Assembly: GCA_963664115.2 (NCBI GenBank)
Contig: CAXWPJ010000009.1
Coordinates: 96,001 to 160,000, forward strand
DNA length: 64,000 nucleotides
Origin: Terriglobia bacterium
GTDB lineage: Bacteria > Acidobacteriota > Terriglobia > 20CM-2-55-15
Reading direction: 5' to 3'
The notes below the pieces were generated by a model. It was not told where the DNA came from and ran no database searches. It saw only the letters and a list, made by a program, of their open reading frames with translations. Of this stretch, positions 23,583-43,172 are shown one piece after another. The position numbers and the translations under genes are program-made. Positions within the stretch are counted from its first letter, which is position 1, and each line of letters begins with the position of its first letter.

Positions 23583-26500
23583 ATGAGCAAACCTTCAAGA
23601 CGCAGGTTGGCCGACAGGCTCCTCGTTTTAGCCGTCCTGACTTGCGTTCTGGTCTCTTTCAACCTGACATCCGCGGCAAATCCCTCTGCTGTTCAAGAGC
23701 CCTCCGGCGGAGCAGACCCCAACCGTCTGTGGGCAATCGTCATCGGCGTCTCGAATTATACTCATGCCGAACCTCTACTTTATGCGGCGTCCGATGCGGC
23801 GGCCTTCGGGGAGTTTCTGAAAAGTCCGCGGGGCGGAGGCATCCCTGAGGATCACATTTTCGTCTTGCTCGAAGACGAGGCAACGCGGTTTGGCGTCCTG
23901 GTGGCACTGGAGGAACTGCAGGGCAAGGTTCAACGGGGAGACACGGTGTATGTATACATCGCTGGACACGGTTTCATCAAAAACCGGGTGGGCTATTTCA
24001 TCCCCAGTGATGGCGCTTTGAACCTACCTGCCGCTACCGCAATCAACTTCTCGCATCTCAAAGATATGGTCGAATCCGGCCTGGCCCACGCAAACACACG
24101 CATCCTGGTGACCGACATGTGCAACGCGGGGCGTATCGGGCCGGATCAGTCGGAGCTGGGGGCAGGAATACAGAACCTCATCAACGCAAACCTTCTCGAC
24201 CTCAACGCGGGTGAGGGGACATTTCTGAACCTTCTGGCCAGTCGCCCGACGGAGGCGTCGTGGGAAAGCGACGAACTGCAACAGGGTGTATTTACCTACA
24301 CGCTCCTCGAAGCCTTGAACGGAAGGGGTAGCCCGGAGGGCCAGACCGTCGCTTCGGCAAGCGACGTCGTGAACTACGTTCGTACCGAAGTCGCCAGCTA
24401 TACGGCAAGCCAACAGAATCCGATGGCCAACGAGGGCTTCGATCCTCAGTTGCCACTCGCTTATCTGGATCTTCCCGGACCGGATGTTTCGGCCACGGAT
24501 CCACGGACGAGCCTCGTCATCGTCAACGCGGGACAGTTCGGTTATGACCGTGTTGCGTGGCAAGAGTCTCTGACCCAAGCCCAAGCAATGTTACTGCTCC
24601 CCGAGGGTCAGGAGAGCATCGAAATTGCCCCCCTGGAGACGGGCGAACTCGAATTGGTATTTCGCGGTTCCGAGGATCAGGAACGCACTGTAAGGGTAGA
24701 ACTTGAATCGGGAGAGAATACACTGACACTCGACGCCGCTCGGTTCGATTTCCAGCCGGCGGGTCCGGTTCAGTTTGCGGCACTGACTCCATCCCCTCCA
24801 CCCCCGGCGCAGCTTGCCGTTCCGGTTGGGACGTCGATGTTGTTCCTGAGGCTGGAGGCAGACACCGAAATTTATGTCGACGATCAGTTTTTCGGGAGCA
24901 GTGGTGCGAATGAACGACTTGTCGAACTCCGCGGTCTTGCACCCGGTATCCGAAACCTCCAGCTTCTCGAAGGAGCCGACCGGGAATATCGCTTCCGCCT
25001 GGAACTGTTTTCCGGACCGCACGCTCTGGATCTGTCGAGTGGTGAATTACGCTTCCTCGCAGCAAGACCCCCGGCCCCGTCTCCGGACAATGTCCCGCCG
25101 ACTCTTCCCGTCGGGTCCGTTCAAACTTATCAGGATTTTGAGCGCGCGTTGTGGGCCAGCGACCTGATCGAACCGGACGGACAATCCGCCTGGGACTACT
25201 ACAACCAGATCTCCAATCTGGTTTCGGCGGACATCGCCAACGACATGCGAGTCCGCTTGGTTGTTGCCCTGGGAGATCAAGCGCAACAAACGATTTTGAA
25301 GTATCGGAAAGGCGGTGATATCCGATGGAGCGCCGATATCTTTGAAGATGCATCTGTGTTGACCCAACGCGTACTCGATCTTTTTCCGACAACACCGGAG
25401 CTGGAATCTCAACGCCAGTTCTTCGATGGCCGCGCACTTGTGGAAAACGGCCAGTACGTGGAGGCGGTCCAAACGCTCCAAGAGGCGATCGATCTGGACC
25501 CCGAAGCAAGTCACGCCCATAACGCAATCGGGCTCTCATTCTGGCAGCAGGGACTGCTCGACAGAGCGATCCCCTCTCTCCAACAGGCGATCGCCCTGAC
25601 TCCGGAATGGAACTATCCCCGATATACACTGTCGTTGGTCTACCTCGAACAACGCCTCTACGACCAGGCCGAACAGGGATTCCAGGCTGCACTCGCCAAC
25701 GATGCTGAGGACAGTGCGGCGTACCACGGTTTGGGCCAGATCTACCTGTTAGAGGGTCGAAACGACGAAGCTGAAACTCAACTCCAACAGGCAGTCCTTT
25801 TCAACCCCGGGAACGCATACGCCCATCATACCTACGGACAATTTCAGCAGCGGCTGGGCGTGCTCGACCAAGCAGAAGAGATGTTTCGGCTTGCGATCCG
25901 AATCGAGCCAGAAGAGCCGGCTTTTCGCGCCAGCCTGGGTGCATTGCTTGCCGATAACGGCTTGGTGGCCGAGGCCGAGGCCGTTTTTGCCGAGGTTGCA
26001 GCGACAGATCCGAACAGCATCCCGGTCGTACAGGCATACCGAGGTTTCTTAGAGTCGGAAAACAGACTGGATGAAGTTGAGGACTTGCTCGAACGGGCGA
26101 TCGAGCGGTCTCCCGAAGATCCCAACCTCCATGTCCTCTATGGAGGATTTCTTCGAGAGCAGGGACGGCCGGACGATGCCGAGGAAGAATATGAAGAGGC
26201 CATCGAGTTAGATGGTACCAATGCCTTCGCGCACCATGATCTGGCGACCTTGGAGTTGGAACGTCAGAATCTCGATGACGCCGAACGAGAGCTCCAGCTT
26301 GCGGTTGAGGCTGACCCTCGATTCCCTGCGCCCCGGCGCCTCTTGGGCCAGATCCGATCCGCGCAGGGTCGATTCGAGGATGCTCTTAGGGAATACGAAA
26401 TCGCCCTTGAGTTTTCAGTTGAGCCGGAACAGCGACAGGAGTTCGAGAGTGCAGTTGCCGAAACCCGCACATTGGTGGTTGCCGCCATGCTCGACAACGG

Positions 26501-27413
26501 CGGGGAAGCTTTTAACGACGAGCGCTATGGAGACGCATGGGAAGTTTATCTCGATGCTGCGACGGTGTCTCCTGAAGATGTTGATGTGAGGAACGCGATT
26601 TTGAGGTTCCAGTATGAGCGCCCTCTGGAGGGTGAAACCGGCGCGCTGCCCGTATCAGAGTTGGCGTCGGTCCTCAATACGGAGTTTTGGCGGCAGCAAA
26701 CCGCGGCTGAAAGTTTGTGGAGAGATGGCCGAAGCGATGAAGCGCTCGCGATGTTCCGGGCAGCCTTGATTGACCTGGATTCCGATGAGAGAATCCGGAT
26801 CGCAGGAACGCAATTTAATCTGCGCAACGACGCGTACGGCATCCACGAGATCGTCTACCGCTGGGCTATGAGGATGATCGGTGAGCGTGACTACGCGGGA
26901 GCCGAAGAACTTATGGCCCGTGCCCGCGAGCTCAACCTTTACGCTCCGGTTCCCGGCTTCTCTCCACTTACGATCGATAGTTTGATGTATCCCGAGGACG
27001 CTGTTGACCCCCAGGTGTTTGCAGATTTCGAGATCGCGCATCATCCCGATGAACGGGCCCACGAAATCTATGCAATTCTGATCGCCGTGGCCGGATCGAG
27101 CGATGAGGTTCCGACATATCTCGAGACCTTTGAAGGGCGCGGTCCCAACATCAGAATCCGAATGTCCGTAGCCGAGGCCTTAAGTCGGGAGTCCATGTTC
27201 GAAGAAGCGGTGCCTGTGCTCGAGCCCATCGTCTCAAACGAGGGACAGGTCCTCGAGAGGGAGTCACTCCCGTCAGTCTACGTGTTGTTGGCCGCATTGG
27301 AATGCTCCGCCGGTGACTGCCGAGCAGCTCTCGAAACACTGGAGGCGGGGCAAGGGCTGTTTCCCGACAGCGAATTGATCCGGGATGCAATCGGACGGAT
27401 AAGACAGCCTTGA
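23583..27413 (+). CDS. Exported caspase-family (peptidase C14) protein with PEGA-like linkers and a long TPR array
   Basis: Signal peptide; WAIVIGVSNY, catalytic His in YIAGHG and Cys in TDMCNAG, GVFTYTLLEALNG and QNP; more than 10 TPR repeats (e.g. EAIDLDPEASHAHNAIG). Confidence 0.88.
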   Translation: MSKPSRRRLADRLLVLAVLTCVLVSFNLTSAANPSAVQEPSGGADPNRLWAIVIGVSNYTHAEPLLYAASDAAAFGEFLKSPRGGGIPEDHIFVLLEDEATRFGVLVALEELQGKVQRGDTVYVYIAGHGFIKNRVGYFIPSDGALNLPAATAINFSHLKDMVESGLAHANTRILVTDMCNAGRIGPDQSELGAGIQNLINANLLDLNAGEGTFLNLLASRPTEASWESDELQQGVFTYTLLEALNGRGSPEGQTVASASDVVNYVRTEVASYTASQQNPMANEGFDPQLPLAYLDLPGPDVSATDPRTSLVIVNAGQFGYDRVAWQESLTQAQAMLLLPEGQESIEIAPLETGELELVFRGSEDQERTVRVELESGENTLTLDAARFDFQPAGPVQFAALTPSPPPPAQLAVPVGTSMLFLRLEADTEIYVDDQFFGSSGANERLVELRGLAPGIRNLQLLEGADREYRFRLELFSGPHALDLSSGELRFLAARPPAPSPDNVPPTLPVGSVQTYQDFERALWASDLIEPDGQSAWDYYNQISNLVSADIANDMRVRLVVALGDQAQQTILKYRKGGDIRWSADIFEDASVLTQRVLDLFPTTPELESQRQFFDGRALVENGQYVEAVQTLQEAIDLDPEASHAHNAIGLSFWQQGLLDRAIPSLQQAIALTPEWNYPRYTLSLVYLEQRLYDQAEQGFQAALANDAEDSAAYHGLGQIYLLEGRNDEAETQLQQAVLFNPGNAYAHHTYGQFQQRLGVLDQAEEMFRLAIRIEPEEPAFRASLGALLADNGLVAEAEAVFAEVAATDPNSIPVVQAYRGFLESENRLDEVEDLLERAIERSPEDPNLHVLYGGFLREQGRPDDAEEEYEEAIELDGTNAFAHHDLATLELERQNLDDAERELQLAVEADPRFPAPRRLLGQIRSAQGRFEDALREYEIALEFSVEPEQRQEFESAVAETRTLVVAAMLDNGGEAFNDERYGDAWEVYLDAATVSPEDVDVRNAILRFQYERPLEGETGALPVSELASVLNTEFWRQQTAAESLWRDGRSDEALAMFRAALIDLDSDERIRIAGTQFNLRNDAYGIHEIVYRWAMRMIGERDYAGAEELMARARELNLYAPVPGFSPLTIDSLMYPEDAVDPQVFADFEIAHHPDERAHEIYAILIAVAGSSDEVPTYLETFEGRGPNIRIRMSVAEALSRESMFEEAVPVLEPIVSNEGQVLERESLPSVYVLLAALECSAGDCRAALETLEAGQGLFPDSELIRDAIGRIRQP

Positions 27414-27452
27414 TGATTCTGGCCAGACGGCGCCATCGACGACCCTAGCTAA

Positions 27453-30400
27453 ATGGCAATACTGCTTCTTCTAATTGGAATTCCATTGTCGAACATTGCC
27501 GATACGCTCACGGGCGAGGCCCGCGGCACGGTTCTTGACATCGTCAGCCAGAATCCCATCGAAGACACAACCATGACGCTGACCAACGTCGACCGGGGAT
27601 GGTCGAGACAGGTTCCAAGTGACGCGACCGGAAATTACGTTTTTATTCAACTTGAGCCCGGCAACTATGGGGTTACAGCCGAGAAGGAAGGCTATTACAC
27701 GAGCGAACGTACCGACGTTCTGGTCCGACTCAATCAACCCAAGGTTGTGATTCCACCGTTCGAGCTTCGCAGCCTCGTTGCCACACCGACGCAACAAATC
27801 ACGGTTCAGGGAGAGCAGGCGCGTGTGGCGCTCATTGATCTCACCGCTCCAGGGCCATCTCCAGCGATTCTGGCTTTCATTAACGAGCCGGGCTTCACCT
27901 CTCTGGCCTCCACACTCGACTGGACTCTCCGGTACAACTTTGACAGCCAGATGCTCGATCTTCTTCCCTTGAGGGGCAGTAGAAGTTTCGACCAACTGTC
28001 CCTGCTTTCGCCAGGGGTGTTCAGGGTACCATTTTCGGGCGGATCGGGACCTGCCGTAGGAAATGGCGTCGGTTCGACAGGCCAGTTCTCTGTGAATGGA
28101 ATGCGCAGTCGAAGCAATAACTTCACCGTCGACGGGTCGGACAACAACGATGCAGACATCGGAGTACGCCGGCAAGGTTTCGTAGCCATGGTGCCGCAGA
28201 CCGTCGAGAGCGTCCAGGAATTTCAGATCGTCACTGCAGGTTTTCCCGCCGAATCTGGCAGAAACACGGGCTCCATGGTGAATGCTGTGTCACGCTCGGG
28301 CCAACAAGACGTTCATGGCAGCGTCTATGGTTTCTTTACAGATGACAGGCTCGCAACGCGGGACTACTTCGACCACTCCTTCGAAGACACCGTCAACCCT
28401 TCGAACCTGAGTGGAGGCAGCTACAGCGGGCAAGACTTCGATCATTATCAACTGGGCGGTGTCGTTGGCGGCCCCATCCTTCCCGACCGCTTGTACTATT
28501 TCGTCTCCGCAGAAAAACAGAGGAGCCGTGGCGCGGCGCTCGGGCACTTTATCGTCCCGACTGTTGAAGAACGAGGGCTGAGGACCATGAACGGAGTCAC
28601 TCCGATCGAAGAACTCGGTCAATTTCTTGAAACACGAGGCATTCCCTATTCTGATCAGGCAGGAAAAGGTGTCTTCTCTTTGTACCCACTTCCGAACGAC
28701 TCCTCGGGTCCATTTGGCGCGAACAACTATGCGTCAAGCCGTCTCTACAGGGGAGATGGCGTGGTCCTGTCGGGCCGGGTCGACTGGTACCTTTCCTCCG
28801 CTCACAGTTTCACGGGAAGATACAACTTCACCGATGACGATTCTGTCATTCCGTTCACCGGTAACGCGATCAACTCCTCTCTGGGAACAGCGACACGAAC
28901 TCAAAATGTGTCGTTGTTCTTTAACACTTCGACCGGGAACTTCGGGAACATGGTCCGATTCTCTTACGGGAGAACACACTTGGAATTCCCTGCTGATGAG
29001 GGCGATCCTCTTCTCTTCGGCTCTCTCCCGTCCGCCGATTGGCCTGCAGAATTCAGCAACAGCATCGATACCGGCTATGGGCGATTCGGGCCCTTCGGGG
29101 CCACAGGTCCCATCGGCCAGCTTCAAGTTCTGCCCTACAGTATGGTCGGCATCGACGTGTTCAACTTTCCACAGGGTCGCGTTGACAATACATTCCAGAT
29201 CAGCGACTTCGTGACTTTGACCGGTGAGCGACATACGACGAAGTTTGGCTTCGACATCCGGCGGTCCCAGTTGAATAGTTTCAGCGACCGCAACAGCAGG
29301 CCGCTGGTTGTTTTCGGTAGTGGCACTGTTTCCTCCGGTTGCATGGCCAACCCCTTGTGCCCGTTCGCCACGCCGGACGGACGACTCGAGGGAACGGATC
29401 TTGCCGCGCTCGGAGCTCCTGCCGGTTTCCTCCAGACGATCAGTACGAATCCCGCAGCCGATACGACCATTGGTCTTCGCTATTCTCAGTTCGATTTCTT
29501 CTTACAGACAGACCTAAGACTCCGCTCCAACCTGAACTTGAACATCGGCGCCCGCTACGAATTGCAAACGGTCCCTCGTGAGGTGAATTCGCGAATCGAA
29601 GATACCTTTGGCGTTCGCCCCGACCAATTCAGCCACCTCGAACCGACGGGCAGTGCCCGGGATCGCTTGATCATACGAGCCGGAAATGCCGCGTTCGATC
29701 AGGCCGTGGTAGCGCTCGGGAATTTCACGGCAGGACGAGAAAAGATATATGACTCCAACGTGAGCAATATTGGGCCCCGCATCGGTTTCGCGTGGGATCC
29801 AGTGGGCGACGGTCGAGCGGTCGTTCGCGGTGGCTACAGTCTGCAATTCGACGCAAATCTCGGCGCGTTTACGAGCCAGTCCAGAAACGTGTTTCCTACG
29901 TTTGCGCCACTGAACCTTGATCTGAATTTCCGTCCGCCTAACGGTCAATTCCTGAACAGCCCGGCGTTCTTTTCGTTTCTACCGACTGACGAACCACTCA
30001 TCACGCCGGGGACATTGAATGCCTACAATCTGACCGGCGACTCGTTTGCGACAGGATTAGGAACACTCTTCTTGCAGGCGCCACCGATTCCCGGCGCTAG
30101 CTTGAGTAGCAACGGCTTGGCATTCCGTTTGCCGGAACGCGATCTGGAATCTAGTTACGCACAGCATTTTGTCGTTTCAGCTGAGACACAGTTCGGCCAG
30201 CACTGGCTGGTAACCCTGAGCTACGTTGGAACAAAAGGACATAATCTAGCGCGCTTCACGAGTCCAAACGGAGGACTCATTTCAACACCTGTCCTCTTAA
30301 TCTTCTCCAAGGCTGCCTTTGACGATATTGGATTTGCCGCCTACAGTCGGGAGCACGCTTGGAGGACGCGCGGTTCCGGGACTCGGGGCTTTCGATATCC

Positions 30401-31113
30401 TCGAAAATTCAGCCACTTCCAACTACCATTCGCTTCAATTATCAGCTGAAAAGAGATTGAGCCGGGGATTTCAATTCCGCTCAAGCTGGACCTGGTCACA
30501 CACCATCGACGACATCTCGGACCCCTTCAACGGTCGCGGCTTCTTCTATCTGCCGCAGGACATTTCAGACGTTGGCGCTGAGCGCGCGTCTGCGAGTTTC
30601 GACGTGCGACATCGCCTGAGTGGATTCCTGGTTTGGGAACTACCTGGAACCGGACGATTGTTGGGGAATTGGAAAGTGGCTGCGGTCGCGGAACTTCAGG
30701 GCGGGCAACCTTTCACTGTAAATACGTCTATAGACCGAAACCACGATGGAAACCTGACGGACCGACTGGACCAAACCGCAGGATTGACGGTCAATCCAGA
30801 AAGCGAAGAAGCAATCAAACTCGATCCAGCAGTCCAGACACTCGATCTGATCGCGAAATCCGGAGAGGCTGGGCGGGTCGGTAGAAACAGTTTTCGGGGC
30901 GATGGGCTGGCGACGCTCGACACTGCGGTGTCACGAAGTTTCTCCCTGGGAGAATCTCGCTCACTCGATCTGCGTGTTGAAATCTTCAACGTCTTCAACA
31001 ACACCGCTTTTGGAACGCCGATCCGGATTCTCGAGTCTCCGGGCTTCGGGCGGGCATTCGACACGCAAACCGATGCTAGAAGGATGAGACTCGCGTTGAA
31101 ATTGAAGTTCTGA
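27453..31113 (+). CDS. Oar-type TonB-dependent receptor with an N-terminal carboxypeptidase-regulatory-like domain, split by a +1 frameshift near 30299
   Basis: FSVNGMRSRSNNFTVDGSDNND, SVQEFQIVT and GPRIGFAWDP in ORF 27453-30449; SNYHSLQ, LRVEIFNVFN and C-terminal Phe (LKLKF) in ORF 30319-31113. Removing one base at TTAATC joins the two ORFs. Confidence 0.85.
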
Positions 31114-31129
31114 TTCTGCGGAGGTCACC

Positions 31130-32005
31130 ATGTATTCGACACGCACAGTTTTGCTACTTTTGCTGGTCGGCGGCCTAATGACTCTGCCTGTAAAGGCACA
31201 GGGTGGCCCGCCTTTGGGGATGGTTCTGGAGGCAAGCGGTACGGTTGAAATTGAACGCGACGGGGTCCGCGACGGAGGGCGTCTGGCTGATCTTCTTTAT
31301 GCCGGCGACCGTGTCATCACCGGAACTGGGCAGATCTCATTCGTCTTTTGCCCAACCGAAAGCCGTATCAGTCTGGTCGAGAATGCAAGTATCGAGTTGA
31401 CTGAAACGGGGATAACGTCCCTTGACGGACCAGAACCGACATCGAATCCTGTTCCTTGCGTTTTACCCCAGGTGTCTCTTGGCGCCGAAAGCATGGAACG
31501 CGTTGGAGCCTTGCGTGGAAGGGGATATCCGGCCATCGAACTCTATCTGGGCGGACAGATCAGTCAAATCCGGCCATCGTTCCGCTGGGGAGCCCTCGAA
31601 GGAGTCGATTCCTATCATGTCTCGCTGACGACAGAAGACGGAGCTTTCGTTTGGGAGACCGATACCAGCGATAGTTCGGCAGTGTATCCCGAGTCAATGT
31701 CAGCGCTTGAGGACGGTCAGATCTATCGGTGGGAGGTCACCGCTCGTTCGGGAAATGACATTGTGGGTCAGCAGGCAGCAAACTTGACGGTTATGGGCAA
31801 CGCGTCGTTCGAGGAAGCAGAATTTGATGAAGCCCTCGTTCGCGCTGTTGCCCTTGAGAATGCCGGGTTTTATTCCGAGGCCGCGGCTGTTTATCGTCAA
31901 TTCCGTGAGAGCGAAGGTGACCGTATTGGTCGCCGTCTGGCCTGGCTCTATTGGAATTCAGGCCTGATCGCAGCGGCGAACGCGGAACTGGATCGCCTGC
32001 AGTAG
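31130..32005 (+). CDS. Exported FecR-like/DUF928-like protein
   Basis: Signal peptide, FecR-like SGTVEI..LYAGDRVITG, Ig-like PSFRW..YRWEV and a helical tail LENAGFYSEA resembling DUF928; GGAGG RBS. Confidence 0.6.
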   Translation: MYSTRTVLLLLLVGGLMTLPVKAQGGPPLGMVLEASGTVEIERDGVRDGGRLADLLYAGDRVITGTGQISFVFCPTESRISLVENASIELTETGITSLDGPEPTSNPVPCVLPQVSLGAESMERVGALRGRGYPAIELYLGGQISQIRPSFRWGALEGVDSYHVSLTTEDGAFVWETDTSDSSAVYPESMSALEDGQIYRWEVTARSGNDIVGQQAANLTVMGNASFEEAEFDEALVRAVALENAGFYSEAAAVYRQFRESEGDRIGRRLAWLYWNSGLIAAANAELDRLQ

Positions 32006-33844
32006 TTGATTCGAATGCCGAGTTTGAACAAACGGGCTGCGAGCCTGCTGGCGTGGATTTCGATCAGTGTCGCTGGCCTTGTGTTCGGCAGTGCGGTTCA
32101 AGAATCGTCGATCGGGAACTGGGTCGAACAGCGCACGTATGACCTGAGATTCGCTTATCGTGGATCACTCCCTCCTTCTACGGAAGCCCCTATTACGCTT
32201 CTGGCGATTGATGAAGAGTCTCTCGTCCGTCTGCCAGCTCCCCTCATGCTCTGGCATTCTTACTTTGCCCCAGTCATAGAAAAACTCGCCGAGAACGGTG
32301 CGGCAACCGTGGGTGTCGACTTCATCTTTTCCGACATCATTAACTTTGATCCCGACGGCCAGCGAGCGCTCAGTGCCGCTCTCCTGAGTGCAGGAACAAA
32401 TGGCATGCCGGTAGTGCTTGCCTATCGCGTGGGGCGACTTGGTGTCCAGCAGCCACCTGAAGCGATACGTTTTGCCGCACTGGCTGTCGGCCACACGGTT
32501 GCGTTTGCAAATTTGACCACCGATGACGACGATTTTGTCCGACGGCAGGAAATCGTAGCCCGCTCCGCAGATGCCTTCGAACCGAGTTTTGCATTGGCCA
32601 TCGCGCAAGCTTTCGCGAACAAGACGGATGGTGTCACACCAGTCAGCGATGAATCAAACGGGGCGGTCTTGATCAACTTTCGAGGACCCGAGCAATTTGA
32701 AAGAGTCTCGTTCGCCGACGCCGTCGAAGCCGCCAACGCGAACGATCTTGAATTCTTCAGACGCTTTACCGGCAGGATCGTACTGATCGGCCGGATCGGG
32801 GAAAGGGGCGATGAGGACTTCCATTCGACGCCGCAGTATTTCTGGGGCGACCGGTCGGACCCAAGCCAGCCACTGCGGACACCGGGCGTCGAAATCCACG
32901 CCAATACCATCACGACGCTCGTCGAAAGAGACGCGATCGTAGAAGTGACTTCAAATTGGCAGTGGGCGACGACGCTGGCGTTGGCCGCGACTGTGACTCT
33001 ACTCGGCCTTTACCTGTCGGCATCATGGGCCGTCGGGAGCAGTCTGATCCTTGTCGGGGGATTCGTTTTGATTGCATTCGCCTTGCTGTTTCCCCTGGGT
33101 TATTGGCTTCACATTGTCGCCCCGGTATCTGCGGCTGCTCTGTCGATGGGGTCATCCCAGGTGTGGAACTACGTTCGGGAGGGCCGCGAGAAGAGGTATC
33201 TGCGTAGTGTATTTAAACGATACGTCAACGATGCCGTCATCGAGAAAATATTGGAGTCTGCCGAAGGCCTTTCTCTCCAGGGCGAAACGAAAGAAGTCAG
33301 CGTCCTGTTTGCTGATATTCGGAATTTCACCTCACGCTCAGAGGGAATTCCAGCGGAAAAGCTCGTACTTCTGCTCAACCGGTATTTCGAAGGGATGGTC
33401 AAGGCGATACAGAGTAACGGGGGAATGATTGATAAGTTCATCGGAGACGGCATCATGGCCCTGTTCGGGGCGCCCCTGGAGGACAAAGACGCGCCATTGA
33501 ATGCGGTGAAAGCGGCACTCGACATGATTGCCGCACTGGAACAATTGAACAAAGATCTAGTCGAAGAGGGACTCGAACCGATCGGCATCGGTGTCGGTGT
33601 TCATACCGGTCAGGTGGTAATCGGAAATGTTGGATCGCCGGAACGGATGGAATATACGGCGATTGGAGATGTCGTCAATACAGCCTCGCGTATCGAAAGC
33701 CTGACTCGCAAGTTCGATGCAGATATCCTGATCAGCGCGGATACCTTCAGGGCGGTCGGGGAGGCTGTGCGAACCCATTATCGGGGATCGGCAGAGGTCA
33801 AAGGGAAAGCGCATCTCGTCGAAATTTATCAAGTATTGCCCTAG
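32006..33844 (+). CDS. CHASE2-domain class III adenylate/guanylate cyclase
   Basis: CHASE2 motifs LLAIDEES, DDDDFVRR and PGVEIHAN; 3 TM helices; cyclase motifs LFADIRNFT, DKFIGDGIMALFG and YTAIGDVVNTASRIE. Confidence 0.92.
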   Translation: MIRMPSLNKRAASLLAWISISVAGLVFGSAVQESSIGNWVEQRTYDLRFAYRGSLPPSTEAPITLLAIDEESLVRLPAPLMLWHSYFAPVIEKLAENGAATVGVDFIFSDIINFDPDGQRALSAALLSAGTNGMPVVLAYRVGRLGVQQPPEAIRFAALAVGHTVAFANLTTDDDDFVRRQEIVARSADAFEPSFALAIAQAFANKTDGVTPVSDESNGAVLINFRGPEQFERVSFADAVEAANANDLEFFRRFTGRIVLIGRIGERGDEDFHSTPQYFWGDRSDPSQPLRTPGVEIHANTITTLVERDAIVEVTSNWQWATTLALAATVTLLGLYLSASWAVGSSLILVGGFVLIAFALLFPLGYWLHIVAPVSAAALSMGSSQVWNYVREGREKRYLRSVFKRYVNDAVIEKILESAEGLSLQGETKEVSVLFADIRNFTSRSEGIPAEKLVLLLNRYFEGMVKAIQSNGGMIDKFIGDGIMALFGAPLEDKDAPLNAVKAALDMIAALEQLNKDLVEEGLEPIGIGVGVHTGQVVIGNVGSPERMEYTAIGDVVNTASRIESLTRKFDADILISADTFRAVGEAVRTHYRGSAEVKGKAHLVEIYQVLP

Positions 33845-33860
33845 CGTGCGGTCGGAAGGA

Positions 33861-36800
33861 ATGAGACACGAAATCCGGCAACAATTCGTTCTGCTCGTCC
33901 TCGTTTTGTTCGGAGGATTGGGTTGGCAGGGCTACGCCCAGGACACGTTGCAACTGGGCTATGGCGTGGTGCGTCTGGAGAGTGGGACGGGGGTTCCGGA
34001 ATCGACGGCCGTGGTTGGCCTGAAGAATGGCGACGGCGTTCTGGTGACCGAAGCCGGCATCGGCGCGGTGGAACCGATCGAGAGGGGCCGGATTTTTGTG
34101 GATGCCGCCCGAACCCAAACCCTATTAGCTCTGGTGAATCCGGGGACCGGCTCGGCGCTGGTGAACCTGGTGTTGCGGGACGGGAGCGGAACGACGGTGG
34201 GGGAAAAGAGCCTGCCGATAAACCCGGGTGAACACGTGCTCCAATTCGCGGACGAACTCGGAACCGGACCGGGGTTTGAGGGCAGCCTGACCTTTGAGAA
34301 TGGGGCCGGATTGGGAGCGACCGCAATCCGGTTGGGAACGAACGGATTCGGCGAACCCGTGTTTACAACCCTGCCGGTGGTGAATCTCGAATCCGAAGCG
34401 GGCACTGGGGAAACTGTGTTGCCGTTGGTGGCCGTTGGAGGCGGGTTCCGGACCCAGGTGATGCTAGTCAACCCCGGCGGGGAGAGTATTTCCGGGCGAA
34501 TCCGGCTCGCGGGATCGGACGGGACTCCGTTGGAAGTGGACTGGGACGGGGCGCCCGCTTCAGAGGCGAGCTATCAGATCGCCTCCCATGGGGTCTACCG
34601 GGCCGAGCTGAGCGGAGATGCGGGCGTGTTCGGGGTAGGGTATGCGCGGGTGACTCCCGAAGCAGGTGTGACACCATCGGCGAGTGCGGTGGTTCAACTC
34701 TGGAATGGGGAGGCGTTGGTGACCGAAGCCGGCATCGGAGAAGCGGCGGAAACCACCGCTGCGCGGATTTCGCTGGACAACGTGGGACGGCAAACCGTGG
34801 TGGCGATAGCCAACCGGGGGACGGCATCGGCGGCGGTGGAGTTCGTCCTCCAGGACCGGTTTGGAGCCGAACAGGAGCGGGAGACGCAGACCATTGCGGC
34901 CGGAGGATATTTTCTAGCGACGGCACAGGACCTGTTCCCCACCGTGGCGAGCGGCTACACCGGGCAGATTGAGATTCGGAGTTCGGTCCCTGTGGCACCC
35001 GTCACGCTGGGGTTCACCTTCAATACGCGGGGAGAGGTGGTGCTGGCGACGCTGCCGGTGGCCGATCTGACCGGGCCCCAGACCGCGGCGATGAAGGTGT
35101 TTCCGACGGTCGTGATCGGCGCTGGGTTTGAGACACGGATGGTGTTCCTCAACGGGGAGACGTCCCAAGTCGGGCTGGAGTTCTACGAAGCGAACGGGAC
35201 ATCGATGACCGTCCCGTTGGGTCTGGAGACCTCCAACCAGTTTACGTTCGACTTTGCGGCCAATGAAGGTCAACGTTTGTTCCCCGGCGATACAGCGACG
35301 GTCGCAACGCTGTCGCTGAGGGACCTGGTGACGAACCAATCGAGCGAGGAAGTCAACGTGAACGTCGACGGTTCTGTCCGTCTGCGGGTCCTGGTTCTCG
35401 ATAGCAGTGGGAAGTCACGCGACGATTTTGCTGTGACTTACAGCAGCCTCAGTACAGACATCGCGAGCGTAGACACAAGCGGAAACATCCAGGGCATCAC
35501 GACTGGCTTTTCCACTTTGACCCTTAGCTCGGGTAACGCGATTGCGACTGCAACCATTGCGGTAACCGATGTCGTATCCGGGGTTACGGGCTTTGATGCC
35601 ATTGGCGTCGCGCAGGATGAGTCGGGCACGCTGTACCTGGCCTCCAGTGAATCTCATACCGTACTGGCGGCCGCCGATCTGACCCAGGCACCTGAACTTT
35701 ATGCGGGCGTGGAGGGCAGCCCGGGGTTGAAGAATGCGGCTCGACTGGAATCTCAGTTCAGCAATCCCGCCTACCTGTCTTTCAGCAACGCCGAGGGCGA
35801 CCTCTATGTGAGCGACGGCTCGAACCATGTCATCCGCCGCATACAGCCTGGAAACGATGGGCAAGTGGAAACCCTCTCCGGAACGGGTGTGGCCGGAAAT
35901 GCCGACGGGCTATCGGCGTCGTTTGACAACCCTCAGGGCATCGCGCTCGACGGGCGGGGAAACATCTGGGTGGCCGATTCCGGAAACCATACGATTCGAC
36001 GGATCAACCTCGAGAGCGGCGAGACCGAAACTCTCGCGGGTTTGGCGGGCAACGCGGGTTTGGCGGACGGAGTCGGTTCGGCGGCACGGTTCAATACGCC
36101 GACTGGAATTGCACTCGAGGTCGAGTCCCTGGCCCAGCAGCTGCAGAGGGAACTCTCAGGAGACCCACCGCCTCCGATACGGATGCTCGTGACGGACTCG
36201 AACAACGGAGTGGTTCGCCGGGTCTGGGAGACGGGCCAAGTTGACACCATAACTTCGCTTGCCTCCGCTTCAGCGCTTCGAGCGGGTGAAGGGAATTCGA
36301 AAAGTTCCGCCGAATTGGCGGCAACAGCTCTGCAGTTTTCCGCGCCAGCCGGCATCGCCTCCGACGCGTTCGGAAACATTTACGTCACCGAGCCGGGCAT
36401 CGACCAGGTGCGTGTGATTCTGCCCAACGGCCGCGTCCGACGTCTGGGACAGCGAAACACATTTCAAGAGCCGCGTGGAGTGCTCGTCACCGACGATGGA
36501 AAGGTTCTCGTGTCCGACAGGCAGAGCCTGGCCCGGTCCATCGAGTTCGGGGCTCCGACAATCGGGAGCATCTCGCCCCTGAAAATCTTGAACACCGGCG
36601 GCGAGAGCGTGATCATTCGCGGGAGCAATTTCGCTCCCGGAACGCTGGTCCTCCTCGGCAGAGTCGGGATAGACGCCACAGTGGAGAGCAGCGGCCGCAT
36701 CACGTTCACGGCCCCTCCGGCGGAGAGCGGGATCCGGACCTTGACGATTCTGAACCGGGGAGGCGTCGCCCAGACCCCCCTCTGGGTCGATGCCGTGGGG

Positions 36801-39014: not shown

Positions 39015-40373
39015 ATGATCCGCACATTGAAACGTACCGCTTCCGTCTTCTTCATGCTGGCAGTCGTCCTGGCTCTGCCGGCCCAGGATACCGACTCGGA
39101 ACCGTCTCTCTCGATGCCCGCTCCCCTCGTCTACGAAGAACATCAGTTGAGTAACGGGCTGAGCGTCATCACGCATGAGGATCACTCCGCACCCGTCGTG
39201 AACGCCCAATTGTGGTATCACGTGGGCTCCAAAAACGAAGTCGAGGGACGAAGCGGATTTGCCCACCTGTTTGAACACCTGATGTTCCAAGGCTCGGAGA
39301 ACGTGGCCCCCGAAGAGCACTCCGCACTGATTAATGGCGTTGGCGGCGTCATGAACGCCTATACCAGCGATGACGTGACGGTTTACTGGGAAACAGTGCC
39401 GTCCAACTACCTGGAACGGGTGCTCTGGCTTGAAGCCGATCGAATGCGCTCGCTCGACGTGTCGGAGGAGAACTTCTCTTCAGAGCGGGAAGTGGTGAAG
39501 GAAGAACGCAGGGTGCGGGTGGAGAGTCCACCCTACGGCGACCTGTTCGAAACACTCTATGCAAGCGCATTCGACGTTCACCCATACGGCCATACGCCAA
39601 TCGGAAGCATGGAAGATCTCGACAACGCGACGATAGCCGACGTCCGCGATTTCTACGAAACCTACTACGTGCCGTCGAACGCTTACCTGATCCTCGCGGG
39701 GGATTTCGAAACCGAGCAGGCGATGGTCTGGATCGAAGAGTACTTCGGGGACATTCCTGCCGGACAAGATCCGGTTCCGAGGGTTACAGTTCGAGAACCC
39801 GCCCATGACGCTGAGCGCCGCGTTGCACGGGAAAAGGCGGTACCGCTAGCGGCATACGTGGCGGGCTATTACGTCCCGGAAGACGGGCATCCCGATTCGT
39901 ATCCCCTAGTGATCGCTTCGAGTATTCTTGCCGAGGGGCGCAGCTCGCGCGTCTATACATCCCTCGTGTACGAAAGCCAACTCGCGCTCCAGGCCGACTC
40001 TGGAGCGAGTTTCCGCGAACACCCCAACCTGTTCTTCGCCTTCCTGATCATGAACCAGGGAGCGTCGATCGAGGACGGTGAAGCCCGATTGAACGCCGAA
40101 TTCCAGCGCATGATGGAAGAGCCTGTGACCGAAGAAGAATTGGAAAAGGCCAGAAATCAGATGCGAGCCTCCTACATCATGGGACGGCAATCGGTGCAAG
40201 ACAAAGCCGGCGCCCTGGGCCACGCCGCGGTAATCCACCAGGACACGGCATCGGCAAACGACGAACTGGAGCTCTTTCTGAACGTAAGCGCCGAAGACAT
40301 CATGCGCGTGACCCGGCAATACCTGAACCCGGAAAACCGGACGGTCCTCACCGTTGTGCCCCCGGGAGAATAA
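39015..40373 (+). CDS. M16 family zinc peptidase, catalytic subunit
   Basis: Inverted zinc motif HLFEH, NAYTSDD and EREVVKEERR. Confidence 0.92.
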   Translation: MIRTLKRTASVFFMLAVVLALPAQDTDSEPSLSMPAPLVYEEHQLSNGLSVITHEDHSAPVVNAQLWYHVGSKNEVEGRSGFAHLFEHLMFQGSENVAPEEHSALINGVGGVMNAYTSDDVTVYWETVPSNYLERVLWLEADRMRSLDVSEENFSSEREVVKEERRVRVESPPYGDLFETLYASAFDVHPYGHTPIGSMEDLDNATIADVRDFYETYYVPSNAYLILAGDFETEQAMVWIEEYFGDIPAGQDPVPRVTVREPAHDAERRVAREKAVPLAAYVAGYYVPEDGHPDSYPLVIASSILAEGRSSRVYTSLVYESQLALQADSGASFREHPNLFFAFLIMNQGASIEDGEARLNAEFQRMMEEPVTEEELEKARNQMRASYIMGRQSVQDKAGALGHAAVIHQDTASANDELELFLNVSAEDIMRVTRQYLNPENRTVLTVVPPGE

Positions 40374-40377
40374 GACT

Positions 40378-41829
40378 GTGCTCGGAAAAACTGTCATCAA
40401 ACTAATCGTCGCCATCTTGTTGTCTTCGGGACTGAGCTCGCACGCACAAAGACAGGAACCGCCCGCGGCACTGCCTCTCGGCCGGGTCGATTTTCCGCCT
40501 TACCAGGAACGGACTTTGGAGAACGGCCTGCGTGTATTCGCTATCGAACATGACGAACAGCCGGTGATCTCGATCCAATTGATCGTTGCCGCAGGGAGCG
40601 CCAATGACCCCGCCCAACTTCCGGGACTCGCGACCTTTACAAGCGATTTGTTGATGAGCGGAACAGGAACGCGGAGCGCTCAGGAAATTGCCGGAGTGAT
40701 TGACTTTGCGGGCGGTGACATCTCGACCCGGGCAGCACGCGAAGCCATAATCGTTTCGGCATCGGTTCTCGCCGACAGCACGGCCCTGGCCTTCGAACTG
40801 CTTCGGGACATCGTGCTCGATCCCGCGTTTGCACCCGCGGAAATCGAACGCCTGCGGGCGCAAACGGCTTCGGCCATGTCTGCCAACCTTCAGGATCCGG
40901 ACTTCATCGCCGACACCGTTTTCAATGTGGCACTTTATGGTGACCACCCCTACGGCCATCCCGCCGATGGAACCCTGTCTTCTGTTCAACGCATTCAAAG
41001 AGAGGATATCGTCCGGTTTCACGACACTTACTTTGCGCCAAACATGACTTCAGTTGTTGTCGCTGGAGCACTCGAACCTTCCGAGGCGTTTCGACTGGTG
41101 GAAGAGTGGTTCGGCGAGTGGCAGGAAAGGGACGTCATGCCCCTGGATCTGACGCTCTCGGAGCGGCTGGAAAGTCGACGCATCATCGTTATCGATAATC
41201 CCGACAGCGTCCAGACAGAAATACGCATCGGTCAGACCATGGTCGCGCGAACCGATCCGGACTACTTTCCGATTCTGGTCGCGAGCGACGTGCTGGGAGG
41301 GCCGCAAGGACGCCTGGGAGACGTCTTGAGAGAAGAACGCGGACTGACCTATGGGGCTTATGAGGCAATCGTTCCGCGGATCGGTCCCGGAAGCCTCTAC
41401 GCGGCGACGGAAACCCGAACCGAGGCAACGATCGAGGCAATCGAATTGATTCTGGCGGAAATCGAGCGATTGCGAACCGTCCGCGTTCCCGAAGACGAAT
41501 TGGAAGAGGTGAAAGCTTTCCTCATCGGCAGCTTCCCACTGACGATAGAGACGCCGAACAATCTGAGCAGTCGTCTGGCTGCCCTGTCGATTTACAACCT
41601 TGGAGCCGACTATCTCGCTACATATAGGGACGCATTGGCTGCAATTACCTCCGAGGACATCGCCCGCGTTGCGAGTGAGCAAGTTCTTGATGATGAGGTT
41701 CTCATCGTGCTCTTCGGGAACGCGGATGCCTTCCTGGAAGAACTCGAATCTCTGGGGCCGGTCGAAGTGATCCCGCTCTCCGGTTTGGACCTGGATTCCC
41801 CCGCGCTTAAGCGAACCACCGTACAATAA
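40378..41829 (+). CDS. M16 family peptidase, non-catalytic partner subunit
   Basis: LENGLRV, HPYG and LREERGLTYG; lacks HxxEH. Start approximate. Confidence 0.85.
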   Translation: MLGKTVIKLIVAILLSSGLSSHAQRQEPPAALPLGRVDFPPYQERTLENGLRVFAIEHDEQPVISIQLIVAAGSANDPAQLPGLATFTSDLLMSGTGTRSAQEIAGVIDFAGGDISTRAAREAIIVSASVLADSTALAFELLRDIVLDPAFAPAEIERLRAQTASAMSANLQDPDFIADTVFNVALYGDHPYGHPADGTLSSVQRIQREDIVRFHDTYFAPNMTSVVVAGALEPSEAFRLVEEWFGEWQERDVMPLDLTLSERLESRRIIVIDNPDSVQTEIRIGQTMVARTDPDYFPILVASDVLGGPQGRLGDVLREERGLTYGAYEAIVPRIGPGSLYAATETRTEATIEAIELILAEIERLRTVRVPEDELEEVKAFLIGSFPLTIETPNNLSSRLAALSIYNLGADYLATYRDALAAITSEDIARVASEQVLDDEVLIVLFGNADAFLEELESLGPVEVIPLSGLDLDSPALKRTTVQ

Positions 41830-41837
41830 ACGGCTCA

Positions 41838-43172
41838 ATGGGAGCCTCCTCTGCGCCGAAAAACGATCCTGCCAGTATTTTCGGGTGGTGCATGTACGAT
41901 TGGGCCAACTCCGCGTACGTCACCACGGTTTCAGTCGGGCTGCTGGGCCCCTATCTGCTCAACGTGGTTATCCCGGATTCCGGCGTCGTCCTATTCGGAA
42001 CTGAATTCGGCGCATCCAGCCTGTTCCCGTTAGCGGTTGGAGTTTCCGCGGCAATAGTGTTTCTGCTCGCTCCTGTGCTCGGCGCCATCGCGGATTTTTC
42101 AGGAGCAAAAAAACGCTTCCTACTCTTCTTCGCCTATATGGGTGCGCTGGCGACGTTACCCCTGTATTTCTCCGGATCCGGGGACGTTCTGATCACCCTG
42201 CTGCTCTTCGTCGTGGCCCAGACTGCCTTTGTCGCCGCCAACGTTTTCTACGATGCTTTCCTGCCCAATATCGCATCAGACGATGACATGGATCGCGTAT
42301 CCGCAAAGGGCTACGCCTATGGCTACGTGGGCGGGGGACTGCAGTTCGCGATGAGTCTGTTGTTGGTTGTGGGATACGAACAGGTAGGAATCACCCAGGA
42401 ACGAGCGGTTCAAATTGCCATGGCGACGGCCGGCATCTGGTGGGCCGGCTTCACGTTATTTACGCTCCGGTACCTCAAGGAAACCCGCACTGAGACTCCG
42501 TTGCCGGACGCGTATCGGCGCATGGGCAGCTTGGTCGGATACCTGGCCCTCGGATTCTCCCGCACGATTCAAACGACCCGAAAAGTCGGACGGTATCGTC
42601 ATCTGGTTTTGTTTCTCATAGCTTTCATGCTCTATAACGATGGAATCCAAACCGTACTGTCGGTAGCCAACCTGTACGGAGCTGACGAGTTGGGATTGGG
42701 TTACGGGGCACTGCTCGGCACCCTGTTGATGATACAGTTCGTCGCCATCGGCGGGGCCTTGTTCTTCAGCTGGCTGGCGGGCCGCATCGGCACCAAGCAA
42801 ACGGTCATGCTAACGCTGGTCATCTGGTCCGTCGCCGTTAGCTATGCCTACTTCATAGAGACAGCGACGGAATTTTTCATACTCGGCGGCGTGATCGGTG
42901 TTGTGCTCGGAGGTTCCCAGGCGCTGAGCCGGTCCTTCTATGGTTCCATGATTCCGGCCGAGGCGAGTGCGGAATTTTACGGCTTCTACTCTGTGTTTTC
43001 CAAGTTCTCCGCCATCTGGGGACCGTTCGTCTTTTTCTTCATCAACCAGCTCACAGGATCGTCCCGGAACGCGATCGTTTCGTTGATCATATTCTTCGTC
43101 CTCGGGCTCGTACTGCTCTACTTTGTCGATGAAGACAAGGCTCGACTGGCAAGAAACGAAAGCGCTTTTTGA
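41838..43172 (+). CDS. MFS transporter, UMF1/Atg22-like family
   Basis: WCMYDWANSAY, FYDAFLP, GYVGGG and SQALSRS. Confidence 0.88.
   Translation: MGASSAPKNDPASIFGWCMYDWANSAYVTTVSVGLLGPYLLNVVIPDSGVVLFGTEFGASSLFPLAVGVSAAIVFLLAPVLGAIADFSGAKKRFLLFFAYMGALATLPLYFSGSGDVLITLLLFVVAQTAFVAANVFYDAFLPNIASDDDMDRVSAKGYAYGYVGGGLQFAMSLLLVVGYEQVGITQERAVQIAMATAGIWWAGFTLFTLRYLKETRTETPLPDAYRRMGSLVGYLALGFSRTIQTTRKVGRYRHLVLFLIAFMLYNDGIQTVLSVANLYGADELGLGYGALLGTLLMIQFVAIGGALFFSWLAGRIGTKQTVMLTLVIWSVAVSYAYFIETATEFFILGGVIGVVLGGSQALSRSFYGSMIPAEASAEFYGFYSVFSKFSAIWGPFVFFFINQLTGSSRNAIVSLIIFFVLGLVLLYFVDEDKARLARNESAF

Follow-up and report, generated by a model that had tools for sequence, protein, structure and literature searches.

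We analysed a stretch of 64,000 nucleotides from a Terriglobia bacterium (Acidobacteriota; contig CAXWPJ010000009.1, positions 96,001 to 160,000 of the forward strand), hereafter the window, which lies within contig G000:C9 of the genome here labelled G000 (the labels G, L, P and X denote compared genomes, loci, proteins and runs). It carries five co-oriented genes that encode, in this order, a caspase-like protease of the C14 family, a TonB-dependent outer-membrane barrel, an MtxA-like protein that we call the adaptor, a CHASE2 receptor joined to a class III cyclase, and a large protein with NHL repeats (Table 1). The barrel belongs to a family that we presume to be Oar-like. The original prediction, made from the sequence of this locus, had described four co-oriented genes with gaps of about 40, 16 and 0 nucleotides; the genes, their strand and the gaps (39, 16 and 0 nucleotides, the last becoming 9 if the ATG of the 609-residue database form of the cyclase is used) are as described there, whereas the barrel gene consists of two open reading frames and the fifth gene, which begins 1 nucleotide past the cyclase and is kept beside it in related loci, had been overlooked. 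Export is called from hydropathy, the protease, the barrel and the adaptor each having a single N-terminal hydrophobic stretch. A scan for promoters and terminators stayed at chance level (6 versus 5.0 and 11 versus 15.0, respectively), and there is no RNA run among the listed public holders of the window sequence.

Table 1. Features of the five-gene locus, in window coordinates.
Feature	Position	Strand	Evidence and remarks
C14 caspase-like protease, likely exported, 1276 aa	23583..27413	+	open reading frame, PF00656, TPR families, hydropathy, dN/dS 0.12-0.14
Catalytic dyad His129-Cys180, Asp178 within the span, Asp71 upstream	23967..24122	+	alignment of homologues
TonB-dependent barrel gene, presumably Oar-like, split	27453..31113	+	first piece 27453-30449 (998 aa; frame kept to about residue 949), second piece 30319-31113 (264 aa)
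One-base insertion breaking the barrel frame	30296..30301 (about 30298)	+	gap against L024 and L025 (orthologues in G001 and G002)
MtxA-like adaptor, likely periplasmic, 291 aa	31130..32005	+	AlphaFold, Foldseek, profile, Atlas
Adaptor linker, residues 110-134, candidate cut site Arg131 (31520-31522)	31457..31531	+	conservation, low pLDDT
CHASE2 receptor with class III cyclase, predicted adenylate cyclase, 612 aa	32006..33844	+	PF05226 and PF00211, both above cut-off
NHL protein, likely exported, fifth gene, 1694 aa	33846..38930	+	open reading frame, Pfam, Atlas, neighbourhood in related loci

The five genes form a conserved set. The adaptor was detected in 19 of 61 relatives, to which a species collection added 15 further loci, and a neighbourhood survey of 22 related stretches found the four genes named originally, whole or in pieces, within one stretch in 15, in agreement with the expectation that they are conserved together; all four are whole in eight of these 15, two of the eight being cut by the end of the stretch or contig. 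The adaptor and the CHASE2 cyclase share one stretch in 18 of the 22 and are adjacent in most. Rearranged versions exist: at L042 and L052 the set is broken into two halves that diverge or converge, and there are losses within the stretch of the cyclase (L030, L035) or of both adaptor and cyclase (L087). None of the claims made here depends on G082, an unpublished genome. Within the family, which comprises 35 genomes, the caspase domain occurs in 12, the adaptor in 13 and both in 11. The ratio of nonsynonymous to synonymous substitution rates (dN/dS) of all five genes lies between 0.06 and 0.22, indicating purifying selection.

The protease begins with a signal-peptide-like N-terminus, followed by the caspase domain (residues 50-282), a middle region without an assigned domain and a TPR superhelix from about residue 610. 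With a score of 55.4 bits, the isolated domain clears the cut-off of PF00656 (Peptidase C14), which is 21.4, while the family is absent from the listing of the whole-protein scan; likewise, a phmmer search with the single caspase domain matched no caspase-fold structure, whereas a profile search did. Of 56 aligned homologues, 54 have both His129 and Cys180 and the remaining two are truncated at the N-terminus; Asp71, His129, Asp178 and Cys180 are invariant in 50 of 50. In the profile alignment, the two aspartates fall on aspartate positions of metacaspases from yeast and plants (4f6o, 6w8s). The non-animal C14 enzymes characterised so far cleave after arginine or lysine by means of an acidic pocket (PMC5756287), and the window protease is predicted from its residues to have a matching acidic specificity pocket for Arg/Lys. 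The intact dyad and the many TPRs that had been noted are both present, and the protease appears to be both exported and complete in its catalytic residues.

The protein encoded between barrel and cyclase had been described as FecR- or DUF928-like, an identity that does not hold: PF04773 (FecR) gives no match at E values up to 1, and PF06051 (DUF928) is not matched by the window protein and stays below cut-off in its homologues, only a distant relative at L075 exceeding it. The similarity is instead to MtxA. An AlphaFold model built with 40 sequences (predicted TM-score, pTM, 0.60) displays a signal-peptide-like start, a β-rich N-domain, a conserved linker, an Ig domain and four TPR-like helices, which is the domain order of MtxA; its top Foldseek match is the C-terminal domain of MtxA (PDB 4Z29; TM-score 0.52 by target, about 16% identity), the adaptor profile reaches MtxA over positions 23-278 with an E value of 0.0044, and in the Atlas the MtxA cluster, whose members carry DUF7354, is matched at 0.94. 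Since DUF7354 scores 21.9-24.5 bits in the adaptor against a cut-off of 31.4 (passed by three homologues) and neither MtxA_IG-like nor MtxA_C is matched in Pfam, we call the protein MtxA-like and not an MtxA orthologue. As for MtxA, a CHASE2 cyclase gene follows directly at the 3' side. The linker is the best-conserved region of the adaptor (0.68 versus 0.48-0.54), with 15 of 27 positions conserved at 70% or more. Cys74, Cys110, Arg131 and Trp153 are the sole invariant columns across 76 adaptor sequences, Arg131 being present in 76 of 76, and MtxA itself shows Arg-Arg at the linker end of the profile. The model assigns low per-residue confidence (pLDDT) to the linker, with values of 55 and 48 for the blocks 111-120 and 121-130.

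The cyclase, as predicted originally, is a membrane receptor that combines a CHASE2 domain with a class III catalytic domain, one hydrophobic stretch preceding CHASE2 and at least two following it. Residues D437, K477, D481, T551, N558, R562 and K599 are all present; they include the metal-binding Asp pair, the ATP-selecting Lys and Thr, and the Asn/Arg pair of class III cyclases. The genome has two CHASE2 genes, the second of which (L002:10528-14104, on G000:C12) also encodes an adenylate cyclase; an exported protein with a FecR domain comes after it, and no protease was seen in the stretch. Three proteins with a cyclic nucleotide-binding (cNMP) domain are encoded in G000. One of them, at L081:4582-6672 (G000:C9), has this domain fused to a MshEN-PilB/GspE ATPase and might be a pilus or secretion motor controlled by cyclic AMP (cAMP); the others, a metallo-β-lactamase-REC-cNMP-GGDEF protein (L080:3468-5738) and a sodium/proton exchanger with a cNMP domain (L079:2396-5062), are further candidate readers.

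The firm part of the analysis is the tie between protease and adaptor, which are found as natural fusions. In G027, a signal peptide, the adaptor N-domain, the linker, helices and a C14 caspase share one frame directly after a CHASE2 cyclase gene. Used as the query, this fusion gave end-to-end matches without stops at 19 places, which are spread over 17 of the 401 genomes of the class and over three families; 20 stretches were fetched, 18 picked as fusion matches and two as caspase-only, and the fusion was confirmed in all 18 as well as in L084 and P0103. Of 20 aligned fusion rows, 17 have the linker Arg (the others have Gln, a gap or a read-through that is misaligned), and 19 keep the dyad. 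A barrel lies in the stretch at 15 of the 18 fusion loci and a CHASE2 cyclase at seven. An AlphaFold model of one fusion reached a pTM of 0.83, and Foldseek matched it only to TPR and other helical-repeat proteins. The adaptor-C14 caspase-TPR fusions at L084:9916-12015 and L103-L120 recur as natural genes, usually beside a TonB-type barrel. Four apparent read-throughs from CHASE2 cyclase to adaptor (P0225, P0196, L074, L107) were not counted as evidence of fusion because of an internal signal-peptide-like stretch or an overlap.

The tie extends to distant relatives and to a paralogue. A search of the phylum matched 76 of 301 genomes, mostly in the Ig domain only; such matches, and many of the best 150 from the representative library, were not counted as adaptors. 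Nineteen of the strongest or longest phylum matches were fetched and comprise two full operons and 17 distant relatives, among which a CHAT or C14 gene lies in the stretch at 13 loci and a CHASE2 gene at six; as background, the 4.9-Mb genome G000 holds three CHAT genes and one match to the C14 domain of the window. At eight of the 17, an anti-sigma-like protein has the linker-Ig-helix part at its C-terminus, with zf-HC2 recognised in six, and the gene upstream of these forms gives weak sigma-70 matches in five of the six tested. At L064, L065, L067-L071 and L073, a divergent sigma-like gene, a zf-HC2 membrane anti-sigma protein with the adaptor module and an exported TPR-CHAT protein occur together, the last adjoining in seven of eight. 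The residue at the position of Arg131, read by eye, is Arg in eight and Lys in one of the nine soluble forms, and Met in five, Arg in two and Leu in one of the eight anti-sigma forms. In parallel, the aspartate of a W-x-V/I-x-D motif is found in 8/8 CHATs beside soluble adaptors and in 0/7 beside anti-sigma forms, a match between linker and pocket in which the soluble and anti-sigma groups are two clades of kin and so not independent. By analogy with separase, this aspartate presumably lines the P1 pocket. CHASE2-Ser/Thr kinase fusions, which would have a different output, were seen near distant adaptor relatives at L062:10430-12892 and L063:3349-5553.

In G000 itself, a paralogue of the adaptor with 43% identity (L001:2367-11229, on G000:C12) is divergent to genes for a TPR-CHAT protein, TpsA and ShlB, with no CHASE2 in the 20-kb stretch, and the same block recurs in G007, G013, G021 and G029. 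The analogy with CHAT/ShlB modules that had been drawn originally therefore has a counterpart in the same genome, and the adaptor family serves two sets of protease, barrel and passenger. In a tree of 28 rows, with none left out, the CHAT-linked adaptors form one clade (100/100) within a group of 23 rows; we make no claim as to the order of events.

We tentatively favour, at slightly less than an even chance, an explanation in which the protease cuts the linker of the adaptor after Arg131 and thereby switches the CHASE2 cyclase. The likely periplasmic caspase-like protease, predicted to cleave after Arg, would bind the MtxA-like adaptor and cleave it within the flexible linker, and the cleaved adaptor would then switch the neighbouring CHASE2 receptor, which is predicted to make cAMP. 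The Oar-like barrel and the NHL protein would provide the outer-membrane input, taking the slots of ShlB and the TpsA filament in the CHAT version. In its favour are the match of the invariant linker Arg to the acidic pocket, the recurrence of protease-adaptor fusions, the higher pTM and linker pLDDT of the fusion model relative to the lone adaptor, the CHAT or C14 neighbours of distant adaptor relatives, the shared stretches of adaptor and CHASE2 cyclase, as in the mtx cluster, and the purifying selection on all five genes. We infer the export of all parts, the Arg specificity, the linker cleavage and the coupling of adaptor to CHASE2, the last being suggested by gene adjacency; the trigger is the weakest part of the model and is a guess. 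As regards the original prediction that an external cue activates periplasmic proteolysis and so switches cyclic-nucleotide output, the joint conservation, the seemingly exported and complete protease and the protease-adaptor tie agree with it, whereas a FecR identity and a whole barrel are not supported and CHASE2 is the less constant partner; its suggested role in threat or contact sensing is pure conjecture.

Several observations weigh against cleavage of the linker as a CHASE2 switch. The second, pocket cysteine of active metacaspases is Ala in the window protease; a His/Cys dyad alone is no proof of activity, and loss of the pocket Cys reduced activity in two enzymes (PMC5756287). No CHASE2 gene was seen within the fetched stretch for 11 of the 18 fusion loci and 11 of the 17 distant ones, the fusions are without the Ig domain, and L049, a locus from soil, combines the other genes with no barrel on its 15-kb contig. 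Residues 126-130 of the fusion model are helical and do not form an extended substrate strand; the higher pLDDT of its linker blocks 111-120 and 121-130 (80 and 68) compares different proteins from different alignments and yields no contacts. Two anti-sigma forms keep the Arg while their CHAT is without the candidate pocket Asp. On the output side, no CRP protein with both cNMP and HTH domains was found in G000, the sole HTH_Crp_2 match lying elsewhere. For MtxA, whose function is described as unsolved, deletion of mtxA gave no phenotype under standard conditions (PMC4439547).

On a broader scale, the set may represent a bacterial protease-activated receptor system, in which the MtxA/DUF928-type linker would be a universal cut site for exported caspase-fold proteases, its Arg or Met matched to their pocket; the cut would expose a tethered ligand as the CHASE2 signal or, in the anti-sigma versions, free a sigma factor of the extracytoplasmic function (ECF) type, and the barrel with its surface protein (Oar-like/NHL or ShlB/TpsA) would be a swappable trigger. 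We consider this generalisation possible, if doubtful.

The best-surviving alternative to linker cleavage as a switch is one of secretion and maturation, and we hold it to be unlikely. The barrel would export or display the NHL protein or the protease, the protease would mature cargo, the linker would act as a pro-peptide or pseudo-substrate that holds the protease off, and CHASE2 would be an optional monitor. Such a role would fit the position of the adaptor part in the fusions, which is that of a prodomain, the excess of barrels over CHASE2 cyclases at the fusion loci, and the paralogous locus, where a TPR-CHAT protein stands with a TpsA passenger/ShlB secretion pair and no CHASE2 is nearby; in Myxococcus, Oar is required for secretion of the PopC protease (PMC6434023). 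It is harder to reconcile with the split form, in which adaptor and CHASE2 cyclase stay together even where the other genes are rearranged, and with the fact that the linker-Ig-TPR module also makes up the external portion of zf-HC2 anti-sigma proteins, which lie next to CHAT proteases and have no linked barrel; this points to signalling.

Still less probable, in our judgement, is a scaffold that works without cleavage, the adaptor bridging the TPRs of the protease or the barrel to CHASE2, with the Arg as a binding residue and the protease having another substrate or none. Retention of the dyad in every full-length aligned homologue argues against this, as does the covariation at the linker position, where the candidate pocket Asp occurs in 8/8 CHATs beside soluble Arg-linker adaptors and in 0/5 beside Met linkers, with the reservation on the two clades given above. 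On its side are the missing pocket Cys, the fusion-model linker, which gains order yet is partly helical, and the pairing of CHASE2 with FecR-domain proteins, both at L002 and in published clusters for which the accessible text names no protease (PMC9239204, PMC5192318). Lastly, a loose grouping of genes whose exported products share no pathway, the window copy being in decay, is very improbable and largely refuted for the family by the repeated fusions, the retention of the genes across inversions and reorderings (L042, L052, L035), the whole copies among the four-gene stretches and the low dN/dS; the patchy distribution in the family and the scarcity of whole copies in genera g1, g4 and g10 speak in its favour.

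Linker cleavage as a switch may be compared with several described systems. The closest is the mtx cluster of magnetotactic bacteria, where MtxA is likewise an exported two-lobed protein with a CHASE2 cyclase gene next to it. The link that joins its N-domain to the Ig and TPR-like part is sensitive to trypsin, and MtxA was crystallised only after trypsin had removed its first 141 residues; identity is about 16%, and no protease or barrel is named in the accessible part of that report (PMC4439547). DdvA/DdvS of Myxococcus xanthus resembles the window set in having a periplasmic caspase fold with TPRs and a proposed trans-envelope signal via proteolysis, and differs in that DdvA is a single anti-sigma protein that spans the membrane, carries a CHAT domain with an incomplete dyad and has sigma release as its output, as opposed to a soluble C14 protease that stands alone and whose dyad is complete, together with an MtxA-like partner and a cyclase output (PMC11506125). 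Among the five genes, Pfam detected neither a cytoplasmic zinc anti-sigma domain that, with a membrane helix, is fused to TPR-CHAT as in DdvA, nor a gene for the ECF sigma factor that would go with it. In the Craspase pair Csx29-Csx30, a TPR-regulated caspase-fold protease controls a signal by cleaving its dedicated partner within a flexible loop, as is proposed here, whereas Csx29 is cytoplasmic, of the CHAT type and activated by CRISPR RNA, makes its cut at residues 427-429 (with Met427 needed) and has a sigma-factor output (PMC10028731). By analogy, the window set appears to work like DdvA and Csx29-Csx30 and is a member of neither.

Other systems share the cyclase or the barrel. NsrA is a part of the CyaD1/D2/K system, and PopC is not known to be a caspase-fold protease. 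The CHASE2/FecR/TPR clusters of Campylobacterota (PMC9239204) and CyaD1/D2/K of Sinorhizobium meliloti (PMC5498481) link a CHASE2 cyclase to exported partners and an outer-membrane protein, the partner being of the FecR type and no protease being named in the accessible texts, while in the window set the partner is MtxA-like and the caspase its most constant neighbour. Oar of Myxococcus xanthus, like the window barrel, is a TonB-type barrel tied to an exported protease, with no cyclase or adaptor involved according to the part of the report at hand (PMC6434023). CHASE2 clusters with FecR and TPR partners have been published (PMC9239204, PMC5192318, PMC5498481), as has one cyanobacterial CHASE2-DUF928-WD40 cluster (PMC5587647); a search of the accessible literature found no paper on a set of caspase, barrel, adaptor and cyclase. 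The gene set extends the unsolved MtxA-CHASE2 pair. The signals recognised by CHASE2 were stated to be unknown in 2016 (PMC5192318), and the search found no later paper on a CHASE2 ligand; to this question the locus contributes candidates for both the enzyme and its substrate, and just one candidate bond. If linker cleavage is true, bacterial C14 proteases would gain a dedicated role outside the cytoplasm. Fusion proteins such as those at L104 and L105 offer the enzyme and the candidate site in one chain.

The barrel, described originally as an Oar-like barrel of the outer membrane, is split in the window by a one-base insertion and cannot be restored in G000. It has a CarboxypepD_reg domain, a plug below cut-off and PF25183 in two consecutive pieces (model positions 1-570 and 578-837), and the second piece ends in a C-terminal Phe; the domains are those of a PF25183-type TonB-dependent transporter, and the single reading frame expected of one is lacking, the whole orthologue in G001 having 1219 residues. 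Assembly error was ruled out as the cause, because contigs of five public runs from four studies (X1, X3, X4, X5, X6; the source sample may be among the best holders) bridge the insertion site without a gap and with the same letters; contigs of X12, X13 and X16 do not span it. Identical pieces of the barrel gene occur in two sponge-metagenome runs. Programmed slippage was ruled out by inspection, the site having no homopolymer and the orthologues being in frame. Of the 15 long barrel clusters of G000, 12 run open in a single frame; those flagged are the window barrel, two tandem genes merged and one other; the genome has six TonB_C matches. Since in comparison with G001 and G002 both pieces still show dN/dS of 0.06-0.09, lower than any other of the five genes, the break is recent, and the barrel is a recent pseudogene in G000; therefore the input arm is likely lost there, the other four genes being still whole. 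A second barrel-like gene on the minus strand (G000:C9:1073152-1075765) has its matches in two frames and may be broken too. With its barrel broken, the window copy is unsuited to study of the whole system, for which whole four-gene copies are available in G029 (L027), L048, L055, L056, L059 and L060.

Near relatives are losing the operon. In genera g1, g4 and g10, all four genes are whole in one of nine operon-holding genomes (G029), and the other eight carry insertions, stops, frame changes or deletions, as seen at the level of assembled sequence. Repeated interruption or rearrangement of the operon is seen across these three related genera at L024-L029, L036, L037 and L087-L090, the inserted open reading frames being taken as transposases by eye only. 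In G021, a second copy of the operon ends at the contig end.

The NHL protein consists of an N-region without a named family, Ig/IPT domains and teneurin-like NHL propellers. Its N-region (window 33846-35300) is a domain repeated twice that has no Pfam family; residues 30-490 reached only unnamed clusters among 30 Atlas matches, the best mostly from Acidobacteriota. The position of the gene varies among loci, after or before the set, with tandem duplicates in L078, L026 and L088. Directly 3' of it, window positions 39015-43172 hold a tandem pair of M16 peptidases and an Atg22-like MFS transporter.

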